A stretch of DNA of 64,000 bases from Ezakiella sp. (GTDB taxonomy: Bacteria > Bacillota > Clostridia > Tissierellales > Peptoniphilaceae): the NCBI GenBank assembly GCA_022766605.1, contig JALEOH010000034.1, positions 4,470-68,469 of the forward strand, read 5' to 3'. Below are positions 1 to 44,137 of the stretch, piece after piece. Made by a program: the position numbers and the translations under genes. Position 1 is the first letter of the stretch; each line of letters starts with the position of its first letter. The notes below the pieces were generated by a model. The model saw only the letters and a program-made list of their open reading frames with translations. It did not search any database and was not told the origin of the DNA.

Positions 1-1251
1 CCACCACATATTGGCATCAATGCTGGTAGTGCATATAAACAGGCTTTTTTAGGCTTTGCACTAACTGGAATATTGATGCCACTTTTGGGTCTAATGGCGA
101 CTGGAAATACTGATGGATCTGTTTCTAAATTTGCCGAGGTCGTAAGTAGAAGATTTTCAATTATTTTTAATATATTGGTTTTACTATGTATTGGACCAAT
201 GGTTGCTATTCCAAGGACTGCTGCTACTACTTATGAGGTTGGGATAGTGCCACTATTTGGCGAATTAGAATGGGGAACAATATTTGGATTTGAGATATCA
301 AGAATAGTGGTTAGCCTTGTATATTTTATTTTAAATTACTTTCTTGCAGTTCGTCCATCTAAAGTAATTGATTTAATTGGCAAATATTTTACGCCAGCAC
401 TTTTGACTTTACTCATTGGATTAATTGTAAAAGGGATAGTTAGTCCAATTGGAGTGCCAGGAAATCCACAAGTCGATAGTGCATTTGCACTTGGATTTAA
501 AGAAGGATATCAAACAATGGATGCCATGGCAAGTATGGCATTTGGTGGCATTGCAATTGCAGGCATTAAAAAATTTACAAATGATAAGCGTGAGATAAAA
601 AGAGCAACGACTATTTCAGCAATTATTGCTGCTACAGGATTATTAATCGTATATGGTGGATTTATTTATCTTGGAGCAACGGGCTCGATAGTATTTCATA
701 ACATAGCCCGCACTGAGGCAACAGTAAAATTGGTGGAGGCAATAGGAAGCAATATTGGGAAGATAGCTCTATCGATATCAATGGTATTTGCGTGTTTTAC
801 TACCTCAATTGGGCTGATTACAACCATATCTAATTTTTTTACAGAACTATTTAATGGAAGGATAAAATATGAAAAGATAATGATAGTCGTAATAGTAATG
901 AGCTTTTTGCTTTCGATAATCGGAGTTAATAAAATAATTGTATTTGCTTCGCCAGTGTTAAATACTTTTTATCCGACCACAATAGTACTGATTATTTTAA
1001 ATTTATTAAGAAACAAAATAAAAAATAGAAATATCTATCGAGGAGCGGCTCTTGGCGCAACAGTAGTTGGATTCCTATATGCGCTGGCTGAACTGTTGCC
1101 TAAGGGAAATTCATTTCAAAGCTTTCTTAATCTGCTTCCGCTAGGAGAGATGGGATTTGCATGGACCTATATTGCTGTAATAACAGCTATTGCTTGGGTA
1201 GTTGCGGGAAAGATATTTGCAAAAAAGAATATAGAGAATAAATTAAAGTAA
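1..1251 (+). CDS. brnQ: Branched-chain amino acid:cation symporter BrnQ (5'-truncated by window edge)
   Basis: Frame 1 is open from base 1 (PPHIGINAGSAYKQAFLGFALTGILMP...); multi-TM protein with BrnQ motifs PRTAATTYE, GFKEGYQTMDAMAS, ACFTTSIGL. Confidence 0.9.
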   Translation, partial: PPHIGINAGSAYKQAFLGFALTGILMPLLGLMATGNTDGSVSKFAEVVSRRFSIIFNILVLLCIGPMVAIPRTAATTYEVGIVPLFGELEWGTIFGFEISRIVVSLVYFILNYFLAVRPSKVIDLIGKYFTPALLTLLIGLIVKGIVSPIGVPGNPQVDSAFALGFKEGYQTMDAMASMAFGGIAIAGIKKFTNDKREIKRATTISAIIAATGLLIVYGGFIYLGATGSIVFHNIARTEATVKLVEAIGSNIGKIALSISMVFACFTTSIGLITTISNFFTELFNGRIKYEKIMIVVIVMSFLLSIIGVNKIIVFASPVLNTFYPTTIVLIILNLLRNKIKNRNIYRGAALGATVVGFLYALAELLPKGNSFQSFLNLLPLGEMGFAWTYIAVITAIAWVVAGKIFAKKNIENKLK

Positions 1252-1256
1252 ATCGG

Positions 1257-1288
1257 AAAAGAATCGACCATTATCGATTCTTTTTTTT
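1257..1288 (+). terminator. Intrinsic terminator after brnQ
   Basis: AAAAGAATCGA-ccatta-TCGATTCTTTT followed by further Ts. Confidence 0.8.
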
Positions 1289-1314
1289 GGGTATACTTTT
1301 AAATGGAGGTAAGT

Positions 1315-3054
1315 ATGAATAAAAATAAAATTGAAGAAAAAATTGCCAATATTAAAAGCTTAGATATCGATGAACTAAATGATTTAGCAGAAGATATTAG
1401 ACATATATTAATTGATAAGATGAGTAAAACTGGCGGGCATGTTGGCCCCAACTTGGGGACTGTTGAACTGACAATTGCACTATTTAAATTGTTTAATTTT
1501 CCACATGATAAGATTGTATATGATGTTAGCCATCAAAGCTATACTCATAAGATATTGTCGGGTAGACTTAGCAATTATGTTCATGGAGTTGAATTTGATA
1601 AACTCTCTGGCTATACTGATCCTAATGAATCGGCTTATGATAATTATACTATTGGACATACTTCAACTTCTATTGCACTTGCAGTTGGAATGGCAAAGGC
1701 AAGGGATTTGCGTGGGAGCGATGAAAAGATAATCGCTCTTATTGGAGATGGATCTATTACCGGTGGCATGGCAATGGAAGCATTAAATAATGCTTCTATA
1801 ATTAAAGGCAATTTGATTATAATATTAAATGACAACGACATGAGTATTGCCGAAAATCATGGAGGACTATATGAGCATTTAAGGAATTTAAGAAATAGCA
1901 ATGGAGAACTTGAAAATAATTTCTTTAAGAATTTTGGACTAGATTATAGATATATAGATGACGGAAATAATATTGAAGCAATATTAAAGACCTTTAGTGA
2001 AATTAAAGATATAAATCATCCAATAGTAGTTCATGTAAATACATTAAAGGGAAAAGGACTAAAATATGCAGAAGAAAATCCAGAAGCATGGCATTGGCAT
2101 GCTGCATTTGACAAAGAAACAGGAGAATATTTAGACGATAGTGGAGAAAAGGGTTACGGAGTATATACATCGGAGACTTTGTTAGAGATGATGAAAAACG
2201 ATAGTTCTATAGTTGCAATAGCAGCAGGTAGCCCAGCGTCGATAGGATTTAGTAAAGAAAAGAGAATTAAAGCAGGTAGTCAATTTGTCGACGTTGGAAT
2301 AGAGGAGCAAATGGCAGTCACTTTGGCAGCGGGACTAGCTAAGATGGGTGCAAAGCCAGTCTTTGGAACATCGACTTCTTTTATTGCTCGAGCACTCGAT
2401 CAAATATCACATGATGTAGCACTAAATAATCTGCCGGTTACAATTATTTCATGTGCAGCTTCCATTTATGCCATGAACGATCAAACTCATCTGGGGATAT
2501 ATGATATTGCAAATTTTTCTCATATCCCCAATTTGGTGATGATTGCTCCAAGCTCAATCGAAGAATATGTAGCAACACTTAGTTACGCAGTCAATCAAAA
2601 TAAAGCTCCAATTATGATTAAAATGCCTGGGAAGATCATCCATGAAGAGCCTCGTGATTATAAATTTGACAATTATAAATTTGAAATTATAGAACAAGGA
2701 AATGAGATAGCAATATTGGCTTTAGGTACTTTTATGACATTGGGAAAAGAACTACATCATGAGTTAAAAAATCATGGAATAAATGCAAGTTTAATCAATC
2801 CGAGATTCGTCACGCCAATTGACGAAGAATTGTTGTCAAATCTCTCAAAAAGCCATAACAAAATAATTACTCTTGAAGATGGCATATTAGATGGTGGATT
2901 TGGAGAAAAAATCGCAGCATTTTATGCAAAAAGCAATATAAGAGTCTATAATTATGGGTTTAAAAAGGAATTTATCGATCAATATGATGCAGATGAAATA
3001 GTAAGAAAATCTGGCATGACAGTGGAGAATATTTTAAAGGATTTGGGGATATAA
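1315..3054 (+). CDS. dxs: 1-deoxy-D-xylulose-5-phosphate synthase
   Basis: GGHVGPNLG, DVSHQSYTHK, TPP motif GDGSITGG...ILNDN, DVGIEEQ; start placed at ATG 1315 after GGAGG. Confidence 0.9.
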   Translation: MNKNKIEEKIANIKSLDIDELNDLAEDIRHILIDKMSKTGGHVGPNLGTVELTIALFKLFNFPHDKIVYDVSHQSYTHKILSGRLSNYVHGVEFDKLSGYTDPNESAYDNYTIGHTSTSIALAVGMAKARDLRGSDEKIIALIGDGSITGGMAMEALNNASIIKGNLIIILNDNDMSIAENHGGLYEHLRNLRNSNGELENNFFKNFGLDYRYIDDGNNIEAILKTFSEIKDINHPIVVHVNTLKGKGLKYAEENPEAWHWHAAFDKETGEYLDDSGEKGYGVYTSETLLEMMKNDSSIVAIAAGSPASIGFSKEKRIKAGSQFVDVGIEEQMAVTLAAGLAKMGAKPVFGTSTSFIARALDQISHDVALNNLPVTIISCAASIYAMNDQTHLGIYDIANFSHIPNLVMIAPSSIEEYVATLSYAVNQNKAPIMIKMPGKIIHEEPRDYKFDNYKFEIIEQGNEIAILALGTFMTLGKELHHELKNHGINASLINPRFVTPIDEELLSNLSKSHNKIITLEDGILDGGFGEKIAAFYAKSNIRVYNYGFKKEFIDQYDADEIVRKSGMTVENILKDLGI

Positions 3055-3102
3055 CAAATTCAAATAAATATAACTAAATCAAAATTTATGGTTTTATATT
3101 GC

Positions 3103-3130
3103 TTGACAATTTAAAAAAATGATGTAGTAT
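3103..3130 (+). promoter_or_regulatory. sigmaA-type promoter for peptide/ABC locus
   Basis: TTGACA (3103-3108), 16 bp, TAGTAT (3125-3130). Confidence 0.6.
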
Positions 3131-3157
3131 ATGAGTGTAGAGAAAGGAGGAATTGAA

Positions 3158-3331
3158 ATGACCATATTAAATGAGGCTGTAACGATTCAAGAACAAGCTG
3201 TTGAATATGCTGATTTAATGACACCAATGTGCATAGATGCGTCGTGCATGGGAGGTTGTATTTTGCATAAAAGGAGAACAGGTAGAAGAAATTGCTCCTC
3301 AATAGAACATATTTTAGGTGGTTATTTGTAG
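3158..3331 (+). CDS. 57-aa Cys-rich small peptide, putative RiPP/bacteriocin precursor
   Basis: AAGGAGG RBS 7 nt before ATG 3158; MTILNEAVTIQEQAVEYADLMTPMCIDASCMGGCILHKRRTGRRNCSSIEHILGGYL; first gene after the promoter, followed by two ABC exporters. Confidence 0.65.
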   Translation: MTILNEAVTIQEQAVEYADLMTPMCIDASCMGGCILHKRRTGRRNCSSIEHILGGYL

Positions 3332-3333
3332 TA

Positions 3334-5013
3334 ATGAGTAAGAACAATAAAAGTACTCTTTTTAGAATGCTAATTTTAAGAATTACTATAACTCTTATAT
3401 CATTATCGCTAATTATAATAAGATCTGCTACAGTTGACGCAGCAATAAGCGGAGATGAATTTTTTCTTTTCATTTCCATTTTAATTGCAGTGGAGTTGTT
3501 TGTAAGAGCGTTGGGCGTCTGCGAACAAAAGTTCAATTCTAAATTTTATATTAATTTAAAAACTAATATAGATCAAGAGATATTTTATAAAATAGCTAGA
3601 ATTCCCGTTTGTGATTTTGAAAAAAGAGATTGCAAGGACACGCTAGATTCGGCACTGTCTAGTTCTGATTTTTATAGACTTAAATATGATAGCCTTTTAA
3701 ATTCTATAAGCGAATCTTTAAATATATTAATATTATTGGCAATAATAAGTTCAATTAGCTTAAAATTTTCTCTAATGCTTTTGGCGATTATTATAATTTT
3801 TTTGCAAATTCAAGTTATTAATAGCAGAAGAATTGGAGATATATGGGAAAAGTACAGAAAAAACATGAGAAGGGCAAACTATTTTTCAAATATTCTTATT
3901 AACAATGAATTTAATAGCGAAAGAAAGATATTTAATAATAGCCGTTTTTTTATTGATAAATTTAATGATTATTATGAGCTTGGAATAACAGAAAATAAGT
4001 CGTTGGGAAAGAAAAGAATGAGAATGGATTTGCTATATAATTTTATTTCATCAGCGATAGTATTTTCATTTATATTTTTGTTTAGCAGGCAAGTGATGTA
4101 TAAAGAGTTAACGTTCGGATTGTTTGTGTCTTTATTCTACCAAATTCTAAAATTAAGAGATGGAGTGGATATAATAATAAATTCAGTTTTTGATTATAAA
4201 AATGCGGTGGAAAAAGAAAAGAATGTTATAAAATTTTTGGGATATATAGAAATTACCAATGGGAAAAAGCATATATCTAGTATTCATACGATTGAGTTTA
4301 GAGATGTATACTTCAAGTATCCAAATTCAGATCATTATGTGATAAATGGTTTGAGTATATTTATGGAAAATAAAAACTATGCACTTGTAGGAGAAAATGG
4401 TTCTGGTAAGACTACATTGATAAAGCTGATAACGGGGTTATATCACCCAGATAGAGGCGAGATATTAATTAATGGAATTAATATTAAGGAGATTGACAGC
4501 AATGATTTAATTGAAAATATTTCTGTAGTAATGCAAAATGCATATCATTATCCCGCCAAATTAATTGAGAATTTGCATTTTGGCAATAAATATATTTATG
4601 ATGAAAAATGTGCTAATGATATTGGACTTTATAATATCATCAGCAATATGCCTTTTGGATTAAATACAGATTTATCTAAGATCAGCCAATTCGCAGTAGA
4701 TCTCTCTGGAGGCGAGTGGCAGAGAATTTCAATTGCTAGAGCTCTATTTAAGAATGCTAGTTTATGTATTTTGGATGAACCAAATGCACTGCTTGATCCA
4801 GTTTCAGAAGTTAAGCTTTATGATCTATATCGCAAAAAAATCAATGCAAATATAAGTTTATTTGTTTCACATAGATTGGGAGCGACAAAATCTATGGATG
4901 AGATAATTGTTTTAAAGGATGGAAAGGTAAATGCCGTTGGCAACCATGAAGAGCTTATGAAAACAAATTATTATCGTGAACTTTATAGTACGCAAAAGGG
5001 ATTATATCTATGA
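3334..5013 (+). CDS. ABC exporter (TMD+NBD), peptide/multidrug type
   Basis: Hydrophobic N-half; Walker A GENGSGKT, signature LSGGEWQR, Walker B ILDEP; start ATG 3334 after AGGTGG. Confidence 0.88.
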   Translation: MSKNNKSTLFRMLILRITITLISLSLIIIRSATVDAAISGDEFFLFISILIAVELFVRALGVCEQKFNSKFYINLKTNIDQEIFYKIARIPVCDFEKRDCKDTLDSALSSSDFYRLKYDSLLNSISESLNILILLAIISSISLKFSLMLLAIIIIFLQIQVINSRRIGDIWEKYRKNMRRANYFSNILINNEFNSERKIFNNSRFFIDKFNDYYELGITENKSLGKKRMRMDLLYNFISSAIVFSFIFLFSRQVMYKELTFGLFVSLFYQILKLRDGVDIIINSVFDYKNAVEKEKNVIKFLGYIEITNGKKHISSIHTIEFRDVYFKYPNSDHYVINGLSIFMENKNYALVGENGSGKTTLIKLITGLYHPDRGEILINGINIKEIDSNDLIENISVVMQNAYHYPAKLIENLHFGNKYIYDEKCANDIGLYNIISNMPFGLNTDLSKISQFAVDLSGGEWQRISIARALFKNASLCILDEPNALLDPVSEVKLYDLYRKKINANISLFVSHRLGATKSMDEIIVLKDGKVNAVGNHEELMKTNYYRELYSTQKGLYL

Positions 5014-6716
5014 AAAATATAAAAAGATCATTATGGATTGCGGCAAAAATTCAGCCAATAACTCTTGTAATATCGATTTTGGTGAATATTTTTGATTGGA
5101 TATTATCATTAATTTTTATACATTGGACAGCTATATTATTTGAAGAAGTAAGCTTTGTGTTAAAAGGCAATGACATCAATTTTTCGACATTATTAATTTT
5201 TGTTCTATTATTGCTTTTAGTAAAGTTACCAAGGATATTATATACTAGATATTTTTCTACATTTGTTGGCATGCCGAAGTTGGAATTAAAATTAAAAAAT
5301 TTATTGCATGGGAAGATTAATAAAATTGCATCCGACGAATTAATAGATCCAAAGATGGATAAAGAAATTAATCAAGCTATTTATGCAGGCACCAATATAT
5401 TTCGCCTAATTCAATTAAGCATAGATTTGGTATTTGCAGTATTATCGAGTATTTCTATTATTTATGTTTTGATTAAAATAGATTATATTTTAGGAATTGG
5501 AATATTATTTGCCATTGTACCGAATATATTGGTCCAGTTTTTAGAAACAAAAGTTAGACTGAAAAATCATGATCAAAAAGTAGAATTTGAGAGAAAAGAA
5601 AGGCTGTATTTAGATGCTGTAGGAGGAGATCCTCAATTTGTAGAAAGTCGTTTAATTGGCGCAGATAAATTTTATTTAAATAAATTTAGCGACACAAGAT
5701 TAAATAAAGATAATATTTTAATTGAGGAAGATAAGAAAGTATTTCTGATAAATCAGATTTTAAATCCAATTATAGTGATGTCAAATATTTCTGATATAGT
5801 CATTCCTGCGTTTCTACTATTCTATTCTAGAATTAATTTCTTTGATTTTGGGGCAGCTGTTTCGTCTTATGGAAATGTAAGATCAAGGGCAATCAATATT
5901 GTAAATTTGATGGAATATGGAAAAAAATTTTCTAAAATGGTGGATCCATATTTTAGCTTTATGGATAGGATCGAAAGAGATGGTAAAAGTATAAAAAAAA
6001 CGGGAGATATAGAATGCAAACATGTATTTTACAAATATCCTAATTCTAATATATATTCTATCGAGGATGTAAATATAAAAATAGACCAAGGTGAGAAAAT
6101 AGCAGTAGTTGGTTTAAATGGCGCTGGGAAAACGACATTTGTTAGGCTCATCTTGGGGGAACTTACTCCATCTAAGGGAGATGTATTTATAGATGGAGTT
6201 TCAACAAAAAACATTGCAGAGCCCGATATATATTATTTAAAAAGTCAAGTGAGCCAATTTTTCAATAGATATTCACTTAGTCTGGTGGAAAATATTGCTT
6301 TTGATAATCAATTGATTATAAGTAGAGAAGAGCTATCAAATTTACTAAAAACAAATATTGATCTTGATCAAGAGTTGACAAAAGAGTTTGGTGGCGTGGA
6401 TATCTCTGGTGGAGAATGGCAGAGGATTGCTATATTAAGAGGATTTAATAAAAAAAACAATTTAATAATTTTGGACGAGCCAACTTCTGCTATAGATCCA
6501 TTGAATGAAAAAGAAATTTATGATTTTTTTGAATCACATACCAAAGATAAAACCATGATAATTGTTACTCACAGGATGGGAGTTATTAAGCTGGTGGATA
6601 GAATTGTCGTTATGAGTGATGGAAGGATTGTAGAGGATGGATGCTTTGATGAACTTATAAATAAAGATGGTTATTTTAGTCAAATATATGCTTCGCAATC
6701 TGGTCTATTTAAATAG
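5010..6716 (+). CDS. ABC exporter (TMD+NBD), probable heterodimer partner
   Basis: Walker A GLNGAGKT, ISGGEWQR, ILDEPTSA; ATGA overlap with upstream gene. Confidence 0.88.
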   Translation: MKNIKRSLWIAAKIQPITLVISILVNIFDWILSLIFIHWTAILFEEVSFVLKGNDINFSTLLIFVLLLLLVKLPRILYTRYFSTFVGMPKLELKLKNLLHGKINKIASDELIDPKMDKEINQAIYAGTNIFRLIQLSIDLVFAVLSSISIIYVLIKIDYILGIGILFAIVPNILVQFLETKVRLKNHDQKVEFERKERLYLDAVGGDPQFVESRLIGADKFYLNKFSDTRLNKDNILIEEDKKVFLINQILNPIIVMSNISDIVIPAFLLFYSRINFFDFGAAVSSYGNVRSRAINIVNLMEYGKKFSKMVDPYFSFMDRIERDGKSIKKTGDIECKHVFYKYPNSNIYSIEDVNIKIDQGEKIAVVGLNGAGKTTFVRLILGELTPSKGDVFIDGVSTKNIAEPDIYYLKSQVSQFFNRYSLSLVENIAFDNQLIISREELSNLLKTNIDLDQELTKEFGGVDISGGEWQRIAILRGFNKKNNLIILDEPTSAIDPLNEKEIYDFFESHTKDKTMIIVTHRMGVIKLVDRIVVMSDGRIVEDGCFDELINKDGYFSQIYASQSGLFK

Positions 6717-6755
6717 ATGACACTGGTGTTTCATGTGCTTTATTATTAAGTTTAT

Positions 6756-6784
6756 TTGACAAAGTGTCTAAAATATATTATAAT
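6756..6784 (+). promoter_or_regulatory. Consensus sigmaA promoter for tRNA-Ser/SRP RNA
   Basis: TTGACA (6756-6761), 17 bp, TATAAT (6779-6784). Confidence 0.85.
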
Positions 6785-6795
6785 ATGGCTCATGT

Positions 6796-6885
6796 GGAGA
6801 GATGGTCGAGCGGTTGAAGGCGCCCGCCTGGAAAGCGAGTATACGAGAGATCGTATCGGGGGTTCGAATCCCCCTCTCTCCGCCA
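6796..6885 (+). tRNA. tRNA-Ser(GGA)
   Basis: GGAGAGA acceptor stem, anticodon loop CT-GGA-AA (6830-6832), long variable arm, GGTTCGAATCC T-loop, encoded CCA. Confidence 0.95.
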
Positions 6886-6886
6886 T

Positions 6887-7154
6887 GACGCAAGATGGGG
6901 CAGTAGCGGTTCCCTGTGACCTGCAATCCGCTATAGCAGGGTCTAAAGCCGAGCGAGGCCTTTTATGGTCGGAGGCTGTGTAATTTTTTTCATGTTGATC
7001 CATTGGACCCGTTTGCAACGACTGTTTGCGCCGAACCTCGTCAGGTCAGGAATGAAGCAGCGATAAGTGTGAACTTCGTGTGACGAGCGGTCATCCGTGG
7101 GGAGTGGATTGATTGCAAGGGCACGGTTGTGGATGAGTCAGACTCGGAGGCGTC
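6887..7154 (+). ncRNA. ffs: Large bacterial signal recognition particle RNA (scRNA)
   Basis: Alu-domain sequence GGGGCAGTAGCGGTTCCCTGTGACCTGCAATCCGCTATAGCAGGG and domain IV TCAGGTCAGGAATGAAGCAGC; 5' GACGC pairs with 3' GCGTC. Confidence 0.92.
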
Positions 7155-7240
7155 TTTACATATTATTAACATTGCTTGTAATTGCGTGATTTTATCTTGA
7201 AAAAGTTAGCATAGTGTTGTATAATGTCTTTGAGGAAATT

Positions 7241-10102
7241 ATGTTATTTTATTTGTTGTTATTTATTAAATTGGTATTTTTTACCATACACACTAAGGTT
7301 AGCATATCTCCATGGCTGGTGCTCGCTCTTGACATGGTGATTGTAAGTTTGCTTTCCTTTTTGTTTTTCAAAAAAGAGAGGTGGGCAAGGTGGGCGAGTC
7401 TTGCGGTTTATGCTTTGATTTCTATAATTTTATTTGTAGATATCAATTATTTTTTCTATTTTAATAGATTGCCCGTTGTAAGAGAACTTGGACATGCCAA
7501 TGTGTTGGGAGGAGTTACCGATGCTATTGGAGCGGTGTTTAAGCCAATTTCTCTTATCTATGTACTTGATCTTCCAATATTGTTTTTTTATGTTTTAAAA
7601 GATGGTTGGAGCTTTATTGGAGATGGTATTCGCGCAGTTAAAAATGGATTTAAATCCACTTATCATATTATTAAAAGTGGAGAGTATGTTACTGAGCTTT
7701 CTATTTTAAGTCTAGCTATATTTTTAATTGTGGTAATAATTGGTGCTCCAAGCTTTAAAGGGGCTGCGAAGCAGTCTATATTTATCTATCATACTCTTGA
7801 TATTGCTGGAGTTAGTGAAAAAGAAGAGGAGATTTCGTCTGTCGAGATAAATGAGATAGTTGAGGAAGAAAAGAGCGAAGAGCCATATAAAAATGCTTAT
7901 ACTGGCATTGCCCATGGTAAAAATTTAATCGTTATTCAGGTCGAGAGTTTGAATAATTTTGTAATTGGAAGGGAGTATAATGGTCGCGAGATTACGCCCA
8001 ATTTAAATAAGTTGATCGCAGATAAAGGATCTATTTATGCAAGTGACTATTATGAGACAATTGGAGCTGGAAATACCAGCGATGCTGAATTTGTTTCGAT
8101 GACTAGTTTTTATCCTTCTATGAAAAATCCAAGCTATGAAGTATATTTAGATAAGGATTTATATGCTATGCCTAGAATATTAAAGGAGAGAGGATATAAT
8201 CCAATCGCACTTCATGGGTATAAGAGGGATTTTTGGATAAGGGATAGGGCATATCCCAAAATTGGCTTTGATCGATTCTATGCAGAGGATGATTATGATC
8301 TTAGTGATATAATTGGAATGGGACTATCTGATAAGAGTTTCTTTAAGCAGTCGCTTCCAATTGTGAAAGAATATAGCGAAAAGGAAGATCCGTTTTTTGC
8401 ATTTATGGTTACTCTTACAAGCCATGTTCCATACAATATGCCCGAGAGCGAAATTAAGATAGAAATATTGCCGCAAGATAAGGGGACGCTTTTTGGCAAT
8501 TATATAAACGCCGTCCATTATACCGATGAGGCGATTGGGGAATTTATAGATGGTCTTAAAGAGGCTGGAATCTATGATAATTCAATTATTGCAGTATATG
8601 GTGATCATCATGGATTCACTGGTATGGATAAGGATATAAATGATAGAATTGGTGAATTTATTGGGCAGGATTTCGACTACGATACCCTTTTAAATATCCC
8701 GCTAATAATGCATGTACCGGGTATTGATAAGAGTATAGCAATAGACGGAGTGAGAAGTCAACTTGATTTTTTGCCGACTATATTGAATTTGATGGGCATA
8801 CCACGTGAAGAATTTGTGCTCTTTGGAGAGGATATTTTAAAAGAAGATCACTATGCTACACTTTTTCCACAAAGCTATATGCAAAAAGGTTCTTTTATAG
8901 ATGATGATTATCTATTTAAAATGAAAAGAGATGGTATATTTGAAAATGGTGAGCTTAAAGATAGGCATACTCGTGAAGTAGTCGATATAAACAAGGCTAA
9001 AGAAAAGTATGAGTTAGGAATTAAGAGGATCAATTTATCAAGGACAATACTTGAAAATGATTTAATTGCAAGTCTTATGCATGGCAAGTCGGTAGAAGAT
9101 ATTAAAGTAAAGGAAATAGATATTAAAGACTCTGTAAGAGTTCGCGATTCATATGATATTTTGCAGGCATATAGATCGGGCTTCAGTGATTTTTATGTAA
9201 AACTTTTTAGGACTAAGGACGGCTTTTATTCCACTAAAGATGCCAATAATATCATGGATTTAAGTCGCTTAAATGGTAATTTTATAACTTTGGGAGATAT
9301 CAATAGCAAATATAAAAACATGCGATTTATTATAGAGACGGATGATATAGTTGAATTTGCAGCAGAGATAAGGAAATTGCCAGGCTTAATGGATAATCTT
9401 ACCTTGATTGCCAAGAATAAAGAAGAATATGAAAAACTATCCAATAAGCAAAATGGATTTAATATCTTGGTTGATGGTAGTGGATTTACAGATGCTGAAT
9501 TGATTTCTATGAATAATCTAAATAAGACTTTAAGCTTTATCAATACTGATGCTGAGCCACTTAAAAATTTAACTCTCCATGAATATAACGGTAAAGACGA
9601 TGGCTTAAAATATATATATGATTTTGATGAAATAAAAATCAGTAATGAAAGAGCATATGAACAGATTGACGATAAAATAAGTAGTATTGAGATTCTGCCA
9701 ATGATGGAAGCGCTTAGCATTGAAGAATTGTCGAATAATAAATGGACGAAGCCACTTACTTTGAAATTTGAACTAAAGTCTGATGATCCGAGTAAAGTTG
9801 TATTTTATACGAATACAATTACTAAAGAATATCATGAATTAGATAGACTTAAAGAAGCATTTATAAATAATCCCGATTTAAAAGTTGTTGCTTATGCTCC
9901 TTTATATAATTATGAAATTATGAGGATAATTTCCAATTCAAGGATTGATCTAAGCCGAATAATACCATATACAACTGATAATTGGCAGGTCAGCTATCCA
10001 CATAGACTTGGTTATGGGACTTTTATATATGAAGACGGATTAGAAAATAAGACCACGCGTGAGATTAGAAAACTTTGGGGAGCGAGTTCAATTAAAAAAT
10101 AA
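7241..10102 (+). CDS. LTA synthase (LtaS/sulfatase family) with long C-terminal extension
   Basis: N-terminal TM helices, QVES, GAGNTSDAEF (catalytic Thr), TSHVPY, YGDH; about 340 extra C-terminal residues; start at ATG 7241 after GAGG. Confidence 0.85.
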   Translation: MLFYLLLFIKLVFFTIHTKVSISPWLVLALDMVIVSLLSFLFFKKERWARWASLAVYALISIILFVDINYFFYFNRLPVVRELGHANVLGGVTDAIGAVFKPISLIYVLDLPILFFYVLKDGWSFIGDGIRAVKNGFKSTYHIIKSGEYVTELSILSLAIFLIVVIIGAPSFKGAAKQSIFIYHTLDIAGVSEKEEEISSVEINEIVEEEKSEEPYKNAYTGIAHGKNLIVIQVESLNNFVIGREYNGREITPNLNKLIADKGSIYASDYYETIGAGNTSDAEFVSMTSFYPSMKNPSYEVYLDKDLYAMPRILKERGYNPIALHGYKRDFWIRDRAYPKIGFDRFYAEDDYDLSDIIGMGLSDKSFFKQSLPIVKEYSEKEDPFFAFMVTLTSHVPYNMPESEIKIEILPQDKGTLFGNYINAVHYTDEAIGEFIDGLKEAGIYDNSIIAVYGDHHGFTGMDKDINDRIGEFIGQDFDYDTLLNIPLIMHVPGIDKSIAIDGVRSQLDFLPTILNLMGIPREEFVLFGEDILKEDHYATLFPQSYMQKGSFIDDDYLFKMKRDGIFENGELKDRHTREVVDINKAKEKYELGIKRINLSRTILENDLIASLMHGKSVEDIKVKEIDIKDSVRVRDSYDILQAYRSGFSDFYVKLFRTKDGFYSTKDANNIMDLSRLNGNFITLGDINSKYKNMRFIIETDDIVEFAAEIRKLPGLMDNLTLIAKNKEEYEKLSNKQNGFNILVDGSGFTDAELISMNNLNKTLSFINTDAEPLKNLTLHEYNGKDDGLKYIYDFDEIKISNERAYEQIDDKISSIEILPMMEALSIEELSNNKWTKPLTLKFELKSDDPSKVVFYTNTITKEYHELDRLKEAFINNPDLKVVAYAPLYNYEIMRIISNSRIDLSRIIPYTTDNWQVSYPHRLGYGTFIYEDGLENKTTREIRKLWGASSIKK

Positions 10103-10122
10103 ATTTTATTGGTAGAATGGAG

Positions 10123-10145
10123 AAGGTGTGATGCTATCACATCTT
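10123..10145 (+). terminator. Hairpin after LTA synthase gene
   Basis: AAGGTGTGAT-gct-ATCACATCTT stem; U-tract is weak. Confidence 0.5.
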
Positions 10146-10194
10146 AATATCTTTAAAATTTTTTCACAAAATCAATAAAAGTGATTTAAATCAC

Positions 10195-10223
10195 TTGACA
10201 TTGTTCTAAATTTGGTTTAAAAT
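10195..10223 (+). promoter_or_regulatory. sigmaA promoter of met operon
   Basis: TTGACA (10195-10200), 17 bp, TAAAAT (10218-10223). Confidence 0.75.
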
Positions 10224-10234
10224 AACACTTACAA

Positions 10235-10329
10235 TATTCATCCAGAGAGGTGGAGGGACTGGCCCTATGAAGCCCGGCAACCTATTGAGTTAGGTGCCAA
10301 TTCCAGCGGTAAAAGCCGAGAGATGAGAG
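10235..10329 (+). promoter_or_regulatory. SAM-I (S-box) riboswitch
   Basis: TTCATCCAGAGAGGTGGAGGGACTGGCCCTATGAAGCCCGGCAACC...GGTGCCAATTCC...GAGAGATGAG matches S-box consensus; upstream of metNIQ. Confidence 0.95.
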
Positions 10330-10342
10330 ATAGACTTTTTGT

Positions 10343-10375
10343 ATCCTCTCATCATTTTGAGAGGATTTTCTTTTT
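10343..10375 (+). terminator. Riboswitch expression-platform terminator
   Basis: ATCCTCTCA-tcattt-TGAGAGGAT plus T-rich tail; left arm CTCTCATC is complementary to the aptamer 3' GATGAGAG (antiterminator). Confidence 0.85.
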
Positions 10376-10393
10376 CGGCAAGGAAGGAGTAGC

Positions 10394-11398
10394 ATGATTA
10401 AGATATCGAATTTAGTAAAAGAATTTAATATTAACGGAAAGTTTCGTGCAGTTGACGATGTTAGTCTTGAGGTAAATCAAGGTGAAGTCTATGGTATAAT
10501 TGGACTATCGGGTGCAGGTAAGTCAACACTTGTAAGATGCATTAATCGCCTTGAAGAATTTGATCAAGGTAGCATTGAGATCGAAGGGGTGAGGGTTGAT
10601 AAACTTAATTCAAAAGAGCTCTTGAATTTAAGAAAGAATATTGGCATGATATTTCAACACTTCAATCTTTTTTCTCAAATGACTGTAAGCGAAAATATCG
10701 CATATCCGCTTAAGCTTGCTAAGCATTCTAAAGCAGAGATAGAACAAAAAGTGGATGAAATGTTGGACTTTGTCGAACTTAAGGATAAGAAGGATAGTTA
10801 TCCCAGTAGTTTGTCGGGTGGACAGAAGCAGAGGGTTGCAATAGCGCGCGCACTTGCAAATAATCCAAAGATTCTTCTTAGTGACGAATCAACATCTGCA
10901 CTAGACCCAACGACAACTCAGGAAATACTAAAGCTTATCCGAAAACTTGTAGATAATTACGGCACAACTGTTATAATGATAACTCACCAAATGGAAGTTG
11001 CAAAAAGCATATGCGACAGAATTGCCGTAATGCAAGATGGTAAGATCGTCGAAGAAAATTATACTAAGGAGCTCTTTCGCCATCCGAAGAGTGAAATTAC
11101 TAGATCCTTTATTCAGGATATATCAATCGATGATGAGCTTGATATCATTAAGAGTAGCGCAAAGGGTAGACTCTTTAGGCTCACTTATGATGATAAGAGC
11201 TACAATAGCCCAATAATATCGGAGCTTTCAAAGAGCTTTGATATCGATATCAATATACTATCGGGGAATGTAAACAAACTCTCCAATACCAATGTTGGTT
11301 ATTTGATAGTAGAGTTTATCGGAGATGATAGAAAAATCGACAAGGCTGTAAATTATTGCAAAGAGAAGGATATATTTATGGAGGTGCTAAATGTTTGA
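10394..11398 (+). CDS. metN: Methionine ABC transporter ATPase
   Basis: GLSGAGKSTL, LSGGQKQRV, C-terminal NIL domain; S-box upstream. Confidence 0.93.
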   Translation: MIKISNLVKEFNINGKFRAVDDVSLEVNQGEVYGIIGLSGAGKSTLVRCINRLEEFDQGSIEIEGVRVDKLNSKELLNLRKNIGMIFQHFNLFSQMTVSENIAYPLKLAKHSKAEIEQKVDEMLDFVELKDKKDSYPSSLSGGQKQRVAIARALANNPKILLSDESTSALDPTTTQEILKLIRKLVDNYGTTVIMITHQMEVAKSICDRIAVMQDGKIVEENYTKELFRHPKSEITRSFIQDISIDDELDIIKSSAKGRLFRLTYDDKSYNSPIISELSKSFDIDINILSGNVNKLSNTNVGYLIVEFIGDDRKIDKAVNYCKEKDIFMEVLNV

Positions 11399-12029
11399 TC
11401 AATTGCTTAAAGCGACATATGAGACCATTGCTATGGTAACCGTTTCATCGATATTTGCAACTCTATTAGGTCTTCCAATTGGATTAATACTTTTTGCAAC
11501 TAAAAAGGACTCGATAGCTGAAAATAAAATAGTCTATAGAATATTAGATGTAGTTATCAATATATTGCGATCAATGCCATTTGTAATATTAATGATAGTT
11601 GTCTTCCCACTAGCCAAACTAATAGTTGGCAAAAAAATTGGCATGGTTGCAGCTATGGTTCCACTTTCTGTTTCGGCAGCACCATTTGTAGCAAGAGTGA
11701 TGGAAAATTGCTTTAGTGAAATTGACAAAGGCAAGATCGAAGCTGCAAAATCAATGGGGGCGGGGAAATTTGATATACTAAAACTAGTATTAAAAGAAAG
11801 CACACCAGGAGTGATAGATGGAATTACTATGACGGTGATAAATCTAATCGGTTACTCTGCAATGGCAGGGGCTCTCGGTGGAGGGGGACTTGGAGATATT
11901 GCTATAAGATATGGATGGAATATGAATAAGACAGACATGCTAATGGCGTCGGTTGTAATAATAGTCGTCATAGTTCAAGTCATCCAATTTGTTGGAACGC
12001 GTGTTTCAAGAAAAATCAATAAGAGATAG
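11391..12029 (+). CDS. metI: Methionine ABC transporter permease
   Basis: NILRSMPFVIL, GGGGLGDIAIRYG. Confidence 0.93.
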   Translation: MFDQLLKATYETIAMVTVSSIFATLLGLPIGLILFATKKDSIAENKIVYRILDVVINILRSMPFVILMIVVFPLAKLIVGKKIGMVAAMVPLSVSAAPFVARVMENCFSEIDKGKIEAAKSMGAGKFDILKLVLKESTPGVIDGITMTVINLIGYSAMAGALGGGGLGDIAIRYGWNMNKTDMLMASVVIIVVIVQVIQFVGTRVSRKINKR

Positions 12030-41125: not shown

Positions 41126-41251
41126 ATGAAATTTCTAAAAGTGTTGTCTAGATTTTACTTTAAAAGGAACAAATCTATTAGGGTGGAAAGCAGTTATGGT
41201 CCTCCAGTCCGTGCAAGCGCAAATTGGATATGCGGAGCAGGAAGTTGCTAG
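41126..41251 (+). CDS. 41-aa putative RiPP precursor peptide (not in ORF track)
   Basis: GAGG RBS, ATG 41126, TAG 41249-41251; MKFLKVLSRFYFKRNKSIRVESSYGPPVRASANWICGAGSC; directly upstream of rSAM/SPASM gene. Confidence 0.8.
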   Translation: MKFLKVLSRFYFKRNKSIRVESSYGPPVRASANWICGAGSC

Positions 41252-41274
41252 TTTAAGCTAGCAACTTTGCTTTT
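41242..41274 (+). terminator. Stem-loop/attenuator overlapping precursor stop
   Basis: Perfect 10-bp stem AAGTTGCTAG-tttaag-CTAGCAACTT followed by TGCTTTTT. Confidence 0.7.
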
Positions 41275-41295
41275 TAGTAATATTAGATCGAAACT

Positions 41296-42561
41296 ATGCA
41301 AATAAAAAAAGGAACTATTCTCATAAAAAACTCAGATCAGGAATATGTACTATCAAACAACATGTTGAATAGTAAATTATTGTTATCTAGAGATGTTGCG
41401 GATTTGCTGAACGTGATTTTTAGTAAACAAGGGAAGCTGAAAGCAACTGCTAAATTATTACCTGGAGTTAATAAAATAATTAGGAAATTAGAAAAATATC
41501 ATTTTATTACAAGTGAAGAAACTGAAAGTGATTACTATATAAGCATTGATAATTATGATATTGATAGACCGTTATCATCTTTGAGTATAGAGTTAACGGA
41601 TAGATGTAATTTAAAGTGCATACATTGTTATGGATCCTTTGGAAATAATTATCCAAAATCAATGCTTAATTTTTATAATATAAGAACTATATTAGAAAAA
41701 TTAGTAAAATTGAATTGCGGTAGTATAAATTTGACAGGGGGAGAGTGCACCATCCACAAGGATTTTAATAGGATTGCCAAATTAATACTCGAAATGGGTT
41801 TTAATCTAGGAATTATGACTAATGGCTATAAAAAAGATTACTTTATTGACTTCTTGAATGACGTTAATGAATATAATTTTATTGTAAAAGTTAGCCTAGA
41901 CGGTACTGAAGAAATTCATAATCAAATAAGAGGAGATAACTCTTCATACAAGAATGCAATCGCACTTATAGATGACATCTATAAAAGAGATAATATAAAA
42001 CTATATATATCGTCAACATTGATGAAATCAAATTATAGGCAGTTTAGAGAACTAATTTCTTTTGTGGAAGATAGATACCCTAAATGTATTCATTCTCTAG
42101 ACCTTGTTCTGCCATGTGGAAATGCTATTTTGGATTCTTCAGTTGCTTTCAGCATTGAAGAACTTGAAAAAATTGTTAATGACTTTCCAGAGATTTTTAT
42201 AGGAGAAAGATCAATTATACGAGTCAATAAACCAAGATGTACCGGAGGGGTTTCACAAGCAACGCTTACCTCAAAAGGAGATTTAAAAATCTGTAATTGT
42301 GCTACAGACAGTAGATTTTATTTTCGCGGAAATGTTTTGACTGACGATTTAATAAACATATGGAATAATCCTGGTATAAATATTGAAAAATACAGAAATG
42401 AGAAAGCTTTAAAAGGTCAAAATTGTATAACTTGTTCAAAATATTCGACATGTTTTGCCACTGACTGTAGGGTATCCGCTTTTTTGTATACTGGAAATGA
42501 TGAGCTTTGCTCTCCGATAACTTTTTATTGTTCAAGGAATAATGATGAAGATAGTATTTAA
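41296..42561 (+). CDS. Radical SAM/SPASM peptide maturase
   Basis: CNLKCIHC (CX3CX2C), LTGGE, VSLDG; SPASM C-x12-G-x4-C...C-x2-C-x5-C-x4-C...C; ~90-aa N-terminal segment consistent with an RRE. Confidence 0.9.
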   Translation: MQIKKGTILIKNSDQEYVLSNNMLNSKLLLSRDVADLLNVIFSKQGKLKATAKLLPGVNKIIRKLEKYHFITSEETESDYYISIDNYDIDRPLSSLSIELTDRCNLKCIHCYGSFGNNYPKSMLNFYNIRTILEKLVKLNCGSINLTGGECTIHKDFNRIAKLILEMGFNLGIMTNGYKKDYFIDFLNDVNEYNFIVKVSLDGTEEIHNQIRGDNSSYKNAIALIDDIYKRDNIKLYISSTLMKSNYRQFRELISFVEDRYPKCIHSLDLVLPCGNAILDSSVAFSIEELEKIVNDFPEIFIGERSIIRVNKPRCTGGVSQATLTSKGDLKICNCATDSRFYFRGNVLTDDLINIWNNPGINIEKYRNEKALKGQNCITCSKYSTCFATDCRVSAFLYTGNDELCSPITFYCSRNNDEDSI

Positions 42562-44137
42562 ACATTTTAATGACGCCGTTAAAAGATTTCCCAAGCATTT
42601 TATTAGGACATTTTTTCTATCTATACTTGCTGCGATAGTTAGCATAGCTATTCCAATTGCAATGAGGCAGTTGATAGAGGGTGATTTTAGCTCTAGGGAT
42701 ATAGTGGTAAATATTATTATTTTATCGGCTATGATATTATTGTCGATTATTATCGCCATTAAAAAGACCAAGACCATGGATGAATTCGGTGGGGAATATC
42801 TAAAAGATATTTTAAAGAGGGTTGAGCACATTCTATACAATACCAATTATGAAAGAGTTGATGAACTAAATAAAAATGGGCTGAGTCATACATTATTTTC
42901 GGATGCCATGACTATTATGAGTACGGTTGGACTGATGATACCATCATTTATTAGTTCGGTTATAATAGTTTTATTTTTACTGGCAATTAGTTTTTATTTT
43001 AATCCATTAATAGCTCTAATTTCTATGATTGCAATTTTAGCTGGAGTTGCTATCTCATTTTTTGCAAGAAAGAAGATGTATAATACTTCTAAAGGGACCA
43101 ATCGTAAACTAAAAATAGTCCATGATTTTACTAATGAGTTGACCAATACTACTTTCGATGCAAGACATAATAGACTCGGTGTATATTATGCAAAAAAGAC
43201 TGACAGCATAATAGATGATTTCATAAAGACTGCTAAAGAAGAGGATGTGACGAGAGAATTATATAATGAATTGATAATAAACTACAATCTAATCATTCAA
43301 GTTTTAGTTTCCGTCTTGTTGTCCATTCCGTTTATAAATAATTCAATATCAAATGCATTATTTTTTATCATGGTATTTAATCTGCTGATCACTCAAGGGT
43401 CTAATATAGAAATATATTTGGGTCAAATAATCTCATCGCTTGTCAGCTTTAACAATATAGAAAAAATATTGAAGTTACCGATGGATAGTGCAAAAGAAGA
43501 GATAAATAGCATTGATGAGATATCGATTAGAGATCTCAGCTTTAATCATGGGGAGGACAAATTATTCGATGGACTTAATATCGATTTTAAAAAAGGTGAT
43601 ACCATATTGATAGAAGGAGCTAATGGATCGGGGAAAAGCACTTTTTTAAAGCTCTTATTAAAATACTACGAATATGATGGTAGCATAAAATACAATGGGC
43701 TGGAACTTAGGGAAATTAAAAGGGAAGCTCTATATAAAAAGATGCTATATATCAATCAAAAAGAGATAATATTAAATGAAGACATTGACGATTTTATAAA
43801 TATTACACTGGATGAAAATATATCTCAATTAGAAGTCCATAAATTTATGGATAGCTATGATTTTAAAAAGGATTATAAAGAAAAGCTGGAATATGACAAG
43901 CTCTCAGGTGGTGAGATAAAAAAATTACTAATCGCAAAACTCTTTTTTGCAAGTCCAAAGAGGGATGTAATACTAATTGATGAAATAGAAGCGGGTCTAG
44001 ATGATGCATCATTAGCTAAATTAAGCTTTTTTTTAAATAAGATTGCAGGCACTGAAGAAAAAATTATATTTATAATCTCTCACGGAGATAAATTAAAAGT
44101 CAATTGTACGAAAAGGCTAAGACTAAGTCATGAATAA
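42542..44137 (+). CDS. ABC exporter (TMD+NBD), no C39 peptidase domain
   Basis: GANGSGKST, LSGGEIKK, ILIDE, ISHG; overlaps rSAM 3' end by 20 nt. Confidence 0.88.
   Translation: MMKIVFKHFNDAVKRFPKHFIRTFFLSILAAIVSIAIPIAMRQLIEGDFSSRDIVVNIIILSAMILLSIIIAIKKTKTMDEFGGEYLKDILKRVEHILYNTNYERVDELNKNGLSHTLFSDAMTIMSTVGLMIPSFISSVIIVLFLLAISFYFNPLIALISMIAILAGVAISFFARKKMYNTSKGTNRKLKIVHDFTNELTNTTFDARHNRLGVYYAKKTDSIIDDFIKTAKEEDVTRELYNELIINYNLIIQVLVSVLLSIPFINNSISNALFFIMVFNLLITQGSNIEIYLGQIISSLVSFNNIEKILKLPMDSAKEEINSIDEISIRDLSFNHGEDKLFDGLNIDFKKGDTILIEGANGSGKSTFLKLLLKYYEYDGSIKYNGLELREIKREALYKKMLYINQKEIILNEDIDDFINITLDENISQLEVHKFMDSYDFKKDYKEKLEYDKLSGGEIKKLLIAKLFFASPKRDVILIDEIEAGLDDASLAKLSFFLNKIAGTEEKIIFIISHGDKLKVNCTKRLRLSHE

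Follow-up and report, generated by a model that had tools for sequence, protein, structure and literature searches.

The 64,000-nucleotide stretch analyzed here, hereafter the window, comes from Ezakiella sp. (GenBank assembly GCA_022766605.1, contig JALEOH010000034.1, positions 4,470 to 68,469). Between the dxs gene and a tRNA-Ser gene followed by the large signal recognition particle (SRP) RNA, it contains a block in which a small open reading frame (ORF) of 57 amino acids precedes two ATP-binding cassette (ABC) half-transporter genes, ABC1 and ABC2, each fusing a transmembrane domain (TMD) to a nucleotide-binding domain (NBD). An earlier description, made without database searches (the sequence-only reading), had placed the block at this location, credited it with a promoter and a strong ribosome-binding site (RBS), called it AT-richer than its flanks and noted two fused TMD-NBD exporters without a modifying enzyme. 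All of this holds: TTGACA and TAGTAT with a 16-nt spacer are present together with AAGGAGG, both exporter genes are intact, and the G+C content of 29.1%, compared with a window median of 35.1%, is the lowest among all 3.6-kb windows in the 64 kb. From the peptide ORF to the first exporter gene (3158 to 3334) no maturase gene was found in the window, just the last 29 codons of a radical S-adenosylmethionine (rSAM)/SPASM enzyme being left there, and no convincing direct repeats border the block as island boundaries. Comparison with a sister allele carried by an ENA metagenome scaffold (L006) indicates that the block is very probably the remnant of a four-gene cluster for a ribosomally synthesized peptide with post-translational modifications (RiPP), composed of a precursor, an rSAM/SPASM maturase and two ABC half-transporters, from which a microhomology deletion removed 1,464 bp. 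The features of the block and of its flanks are the following.

3103..3130, + strand: sigma-70-type promoter of what was once the precursor gene, with TTGACA at 3103, a 16-nt spacer and TAGTAT (10/12 matches)
3144..3150, + strand: RBS AAGGAGG of the precursor gene, 7 nt upstream of the ATG at 3158, read directly from the sequence
3158..3331, + strand: chimeric ORF of 57 aa, MTILNEAVTIQEQAVEYADLMTPMCIDASCMGGCILHKRRTGRRNCSSIEHILGGYL, with the precursor leader and first core residues in frame with the maturase C-terminus
3158..3242, + strand: precursor-derived part of this ORF, the leader MTILNEAVTIQEQAVEYADLMTP followed by MCIDA, identical to L006 1009-1093
3238..3242, + strand: deletion junction, a TGCGT microhomology found once in the window and twice in L006 (1089-1093 and 2553-2557)
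3243..3331, + strand: 3' remnant of the rSAM/SPASM maturase gene (last 29 codons), holding Cys30 (3245-3247), Cys34 and the ABC1 RBS AGGTGG (3316-3321)
3334..5013, + strand: ABC1, intact TMD-NBD half-transporter of 559 aa, starting 2 nt past the stop of the fusion ORF
5010..6716, + strand: ABC2, intact TMD-NBD half-transporter of 568 aa, with a 4-nt overlap with the ABC1 stop
1303-3054: dxs (NF008968 match, 779 bits), upstream flank of the block
6796-6885: tRNA-Ser(GGA), downstream flank of the block
6886-7155: large SRP RNA, beginning directly after tRNA-Ser

The sister allele was found by a protein search with ABC1, through a 99%-identical protein (98.7% amino acid identity between the two ABC1). 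It has the same flanks as the window, dxs upstream and LtaS downstream, with 99.1-99.4% nucleotide identity from dxs to LtaS. Between dxs and ABC1 it contains the same promoter and RBS, a 39-aa precursor (MTILNEAVTIQEQAVEYADLMTPMCIDACECTGNCLGNE, L006 1009-1128), a 282-nt spacer with a stable hairpin, and a 411-aa rSAM/SPASM maturase (L006 1411-2646) whose stop lies 2 nt ahead of the ABC1 start. The promoter spacer differs by a single A of a homopolymer, being A7 and 16 nt in the window (3109-3124) and A8 and 17 nt in L006 (959-975). Three-way DNA alignment and blastn revealed the window to be collinear with L006 1-1093 and L006 2553-10328, the missing segment of 1,464 bp (488 codons) lying between the two TGCGT copies of L006; in the three-way alignment the junction falls at GCGT/TGCGT. 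Since precursor and maturase share one frame in L006, the deletion yields an in-frame fusion, in which codons 1-28 of the precursor are followed by codons 383-411 of the maturase. The sequence-only reading had proposed, among other possibilities, a RiPP cassette that lost its maturase, and a search with the exporters followed by inspection of their neighbourhoods as the way to check it; that search led to a 99%-identical locus with a precursor and an rSAM/SPASM gene beside the same exporters at the same site, the maturase lying between peptide and exporter, and thereby showed the proposal of a lost maturase to be right.

Both halves of the 57-aa ORF could be traced. In tblastn it shared 86% identity with the precursor over residues 1-36 of the latter and 97% with the rSAM enzyme over residues 382-411, and its residues 29-57 (SCMGGCILHKRRTGRRNCSSIEHILGGYL) are the maturase C-terminus, aligning with the C-termini of 12 homologues. 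Its Cys25 is precursor-derived, Cys30 and Cys34 correspond to the two final cysteines in the maturase SPASM pattern C-x2-C-x5-C-x3-C, and altogether maturase C384, C388 and C400 survive as Cys30, Cys34 and Cys46. The precursor part is truncated after MCIDA and the conserved core CECTGNCLGNE is absent. Neither the 57-aa ORF nor the 39-aa precursor matched a model in NCBIfam or Pfam, and the exact fusion ORF is on record in 2 contigs, as a single-member cluster. The acidic N-terminal half previously described as leader-like is consequently a real leader, and the C-x4-C-x3-C segment taken for a core is accidental, two of its cysteines belonging to the maturase SPASM region. To judge from these alignments, the 57-aa ORF is a deletion scar fusing a leader to a maturase tail and not a genuine precursor. 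With enzyme and core both gone, the strain would be unable to make the peptide.

The maturase of the sister allele displays the motif CNFNCPYC (CxxxCxxC) and matches Pfam PF04055 Radical_SAM (E 5e-13) and Fer4_12, with a weak Pfam SPASM match (E 0.032). Its best NCBIfam matches are models of rSAM/SPASM maturases of Cys-rich peptides, all far under their cutoffs: CefB (NF038107; 150 bits vs a cutoff of 600), TIGR04463 (141 vs 525) and Clo7bot (TIGR04334; 124 vs 600), the three of them aligning near full-length, then the geopeptide maturase model (103 bits, below cutoff), PapB (88 vs 340) and the SCIFF maturase (58 vs 425). On these scores the deleted maturase is not a member of CefB, TIGR04463 or Clo7bot and belongs to a neighbouring uncurated family. 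The nearest solved structure is that of the ranthipeptide synthase CteB (5wgg; E 3e-9, rSAM core only). Alignment with the homologues shows about 85 residues N-terminal to the rSAM core, and in the SPASM region the conserved cysteines C313, C316, C333, C375, C378, C384, C388 and C400. No RiPP recognition element (RRE) or PqqD model turned up in the domain search of this protein, in which no RRE-directed test was made.

A word-indexed search returned 662 homologues of this maturase at E<=1e-10, mostly without a name. The order small ORF, rSAM gene and two ABC half-transporter genes was found in every homologue neighbourhood examined, namely L090 (rSAM 51% identical to that of L006), L091/L092 (38%) and L093 (39%), as well as in L001-L004. 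The small ORFs of these loci are homologous to one another, and a profile search retrieved about 16-18 clusters of 34-45-aa peptides with a leader of the form M-K-[LI]-[LIV]-N-x-A and a core of the form [CS]-[LI]-D-A-C-x-C-[TI] followed by GN or DPxx and a final C. None of these CLDACxC precursor clusters had a Pfam or NCBIfam match or a name, and nothing relevant was found in the literature for the core motifs LDACQCT, DACECTGNC and CTGNC, nor for CefB or Cys-every-fifth. The intact family is treated here as belonging, without a curated model, to a kind already known, the rSAM/SPASM-modified and ABC-exported RiPPs. In the more distant CLDACKCTDPDAC subfamily, seen in L091/L092 (L091 1948-5037 and 10759-12114), the cluster adjoins agrB-like, LytTR response-regulator and histidine-kinase genes and a second rSAM gene follows the ABC pair, a context that suggests a quorum-sensing control and a two-enzyme pathway.

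By analogy with the nearest families, the maturase of an intact cluster would bind the leader MK/T-I-L-N-E-A-V... and would cross-link the Cys-rich core PMCIDACECTGNC, most probably through thioethers, while the heterodimeric ABC pair would export the product and/or protect the producer. The L006 maturase shares with CteB of the CteB/CteA thermocellin system (5wgg) and with PapB of the freyrasin system the CxxxCxxC motif, a C-terminal multi-Cys SPASM region and an N-terminal part of about 85 residues, and the L006 precursor is, like theirs, short and Cys-rich. It differs from CteB, PapB and SCIFF in that the similarity is limited and the CLDACxC precursors have no NCBIfam or Pfam model; the window, in addition, has no maturase. 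The same logic of precursor, rSAM enzyme and ABC transporter characterizes the "RiPP-RaS" clusters, in which an rSAM enzyme is co-localised with ABC transporter genes (dataset in PMC10288494). Because its enzyme is gone, the window copy would fail the RiPP-RaS filter.

Both ABC1 and ABC2 contain a PF00005 nucleotide-binding domain, with GENGSGKTT/LSGGEWQR/ILDEP in ABC1 and GLNGAGKTT/ISGGEWQR/ILDEP in ABC2 as Walker A/signature/Walker B motifs. The MsbA model aligned near full-length with ABC1 and over residues 139-563 with ABC2; the Pfam ABC_membrane domain was not detected in either protein at E<=0.01 and was faint in homologues. As adjacent TMD-NBD genes with all motifs, they have the layout of a heterodimeric type-IV (ABCB-like) exporter. 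No match to a C39 peptidase domain was found in ABC1 or ABC2, the NHLM and bacteriocin_ABC model alignments begin at profile positions 153 and 275, beyond the peptidase part, and the leader has no double-glycine motif. With neither a C39 domain nor a Gly-Gly leader, this is not a peptidase-containing ABC transporter (PCAT) type of system.

The deletion took away the last 11 precursor codons, the hairpin behind them, what may have been an internal promoter, and 382/411 maturase codons; the fusion ORF retains the promoter and RBS of the precursor. In L006, L090 and L001, a stable hairpin stands 3' of the precursor (z -4.3 to -5.7) and it is absent from the window, where no + strand terminator was found between the fusion ORF and ABC1 (3100-3400). 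Since there is no such terminator and the ABC1 ATG follows the fusion-ORF stop by 2 nt, the precursor promoter likely drives one transcript that includes the exporters, whose translation is likely coupled to that of the well-initiated ORF ahead of them, and the deletion would have placed them directly under this promoter.

The window allele appears to represent one stage of erosion within a pig-gut species, between the full-length allele and an allele reduced to the 3' stub of ABC2. The lead to this third allele came from fragments of 81-94 aa in the 90%-identity cluster of ABC2. Its four contigs (L097-L100), from two NCBI metagenome-assembled genomes (MAGs) and from ENA assemblies, belong to the same species and match window 1-3053 and 6465-11715 at 99.3-99.5% identity. 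The segment in between (3054..6464, unstranded) is swapped for 104 nt of unrelated filler, and the last ~84 ABC2 codons (6465-6716) survive. The filler (L097 4921-5024) matches neither the window nor L006. In run X11, a 7.9-kb contig with a depth of 16.9 departs from the window at 3053 into the same filler. Because this stub allele is without them, the exporters are dispensable in the species.

Losses of the biosynthetic half were also observed in relatives and support the reading of the block as decayed. A second Ezakiella-labelled lineage, represented in four samples (L001-L004), has an rSAM gene (L001 4759-5999) with three frame disruptions, all in homopolymer runs: an A8 to A7 frameshift close to codon 13 and two that compensate each other on either side of a 48-nt segment (5242-5289). 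Outside these disruptions its product is 51% identical to that of L006, and the accompanying precursor is without three core residues; this rSAM gene is a recent pseudogene or, possibly, reflects slipped-strand variation. In L090, a 1,750-bp module comprising terminator, promoter, precursor and rSAM gene lies between 100-nt direct repeats that are 93% identical (5476-5575 and 7226-7325) and correspond to the RBS and first 27 codons of ABC1. In L088, L095 and L096, 93-97% identical to L090, the module is absent and one hybrid repeat copy is present, which suggests that recombination at the 5' end of ABC1 added or removed the biosynthetic half in the L090 lineage. In a further clade (L005/L087/L094) the ABC pair stands alone, and neighbour-joining trees of ABC1 and ABC2 place it together with the L001 lineage, within the clade associated with RiPPs. 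Exporter pairs lacking a maturase are thus common, and in at least two lineages they demonstrably derive from full clusters. A comparable situation is reportedly found in pneumococci, where blp "cheater" alleles are non-producer alleles of degenerate bacteriocin loci. The likeness resides in variation among strains of one species, some of which lose production genes yet keep accessory ones; the difference is that the window lost maturase and core and kept transporters, for which an immunity function is no more than possible.

Several explanations other than an actual deletion in a RiPP cluster were weighed. The window probably comes from a MAG, so that an assembly or binning artefact collapsing a full cluster could be envisaged; Logan contigs from pig-gut metagenome runs were examined across 3238-3247 in this respect. 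In six runs (X1, X2, X3, X4, X6 and X7) from at least two studies the junction is crossed by single contigs with 0-8 mismatches, no run showed loose contig ends at the junction, and an in-frame fusion at a microhomology fits a real deletion. In run X5 the contigs end at 3233 and 3253, beside the junction, which may reflect a mixed population, and no junction-spanning contig was found in runs X9, X10, X11 and X15, where coverage was low. An artefact is accordingly regarded as improbable in the extreme. The opposite polarity, with L006 derived by insertion from a window-like form, was rejected, as an insertion would need to recreate a family-typical core and a complete in-frame enzyme. It is hardly more probable than an artefact that the 57-aa ORF encodes a peptide with a function of its own, whether as an unmodified bacteriocin or as a substrate matured in trans, for example by the rSAM/SPASM enzyme encoded at 41296-42561, even though promoter, RBS and leader are kept and the ORF has four cysteines. 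Against the unmodified bacteriocin of the sequence-only reading, the last 29 residues are the end of the maturase, read in the frame they had there, and its alternative of completion in trans is not supported, because the deletion of the conserved core CECTGNC, with the family-defining CxCTGNC, left no substrate for it. Furthermore, the leader is not of the Gly-Gly type, the exporters have no C39 peptidase domain, the fusion ORF is on record in no more than the 2 contigs mentioned above, and the second rSAM, ~24% identical over 118 aa, is accompanied by a candidate precursor and an exporter of its own. An equally slight chance is given to a regulatory leader peptide of the bmrB type. In Bacillus subtilis, bmrB is said to regulate bmrCD by ribosome-mediated attenuation, and the layout is the same, with an ORF of about 55 aa directly upstream of two TMD-NBD half-transporter genes. 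The 211-nt leader region of the window, by contrast, is no more strongly folded than shuffled sequence (z +0.66), no attenuator structure or + strand terminator-like element lies between the ORF and ABC1, and the deletion fully accounts for the origin of the ORF as a scar.

Some points weigh against the deletion scenario or limit its reach. The full-length allele is known from one contig alone (L006), and its maturase codon 384 (L006 2560) is AGC, encoding Ser, where 12/12 homologues and the window remnant (window 3245) have Cys. At ABC1 positions 178, 196, 402 and 529, it is L006 that is derived and the window that keeps the family consensus. Because of Ser384 and these four derived positions, the "intact" cluster of L006 may itself be impaired, or the metagenome assembly imperfect. 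The runs were picked by k-mer match to the window, and allele frequencies are thereby skewed towards the deleted form. The activity of the precursor promoter, which probably drives the fusion ORF and the exporters, and the role of the exporters are inferred, as is the thioether chemistry, the last from the nearest families. Lastly, between the window and L006 the ratio of non-synonymous to synonymous change (pN/pS) is 0.58 for ABC1, compared with 0.18 for ABC2, 0.13 for LtaS and 0.11 for dxs, the ABC1 value resting on 10 substitutions (7 non-synonymous, 3 synonymous), which can't separate relaxed from purifying selection.

Within the deletion scenario, the surviving exporters may still be useful, for instance as immunity against producing neighbours, or may simply await their loss. 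Active retention as an orphan immunity or export module in a non-producing "cheater", with a deletion that also raises exporter expression by taking out the hairpin and coupling the genes to the strong promoter and RBS of the precursor, is possible but the less probable of these alternatives. It would agree with the full length of both ABC ORFs, the family consensus kept at the four ABC1 positions, the ABC2 pN/pS of 0.18, the loss of the post-precursor hairpin with no terminator ahead of ABC1, and the recurrence of maturase-less ABC pairs in at least three other lineages. RNA-seq (metatranscriptome) contigs were also found on ABC1 (3317-3703 and 4297-4757), though they could be DNA carry-over or derive from the full-length allele. 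The ABC1 pN/pS and the existence in the same species and habitat of a third allele without exporters argue against it. The remaining probability goes to a neutral intermediate in the loss of the cluster.

Other features of the window were noted. A second RiPP-like cluster, apparently intact, lies at 41126-44137 and comprises the following genes.

41126-41251: 41-aa ORF, MKFLKVLSRFYFKRNKSIRVESSYGPPVRASANWICGAGSC
41296-42561: rSAM/SPASM enzyme of 421 aa (best NCBIfam matches TIGR04133, 95 bits, and SkfB, 73 bits, below cutoffs)
42542-44137: ABC exporter of 531 aa, overlapping the rSAM gene

Metatranscriptome contigs matching the SRP RNA skip ~90-98 nt (6940-7033 or 7040); these "joints" are probably SRP RNAs from other taxa that share the conserved ends alone. 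A SAM riboswitch (RF00162, 78 bits, 10235-10329) was identified upstream of a gene that starts at 10394 and encodes an ABC ATPase carrying a NIL domain; the operon resembles one for methionine uptake by a MetN-type transporter.

In annotation, the "hypothetical protein" of 57 aa (or 66 aa) at this locus should be named a fusion remnant and the locus is not to be counted as a RiPP producer; genome mining keyed on small Cys-rich ORFs beside ABC exporters would be misled here. The feature of the window is in itself ordinary gene-cluster decay, and it is the CLDACxC family and the allelic series that are worth following. The precursor/rSAM family is without a curated model or a name, and the full-length allele could serve for its characterisation. 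The series of three alleles in one pig-gut species (full, maturase-deleted and nearly gone), together with the parallel losses in relatives, constitutes a natural experiment on the decay of peptide-antibiotic clusters and on whether exporters outlast production as immunity. We consider it a tentative idea, somewhat less likely still than active retention at this locus, that the association of CLDACxC precursor, rSAM/SPASM enzyme and twin ABC transporters represents an uncharacterised RiPP class that repeatedly sheds its biosynthetic half, the exporters being kept as stand-alone immunity. If this were true, producer, immune non-producer and sensitive genotypes would occur within a single gut species, and the window would stand for the immune non-producer, its exporters newly rewired to the precursor promoter.

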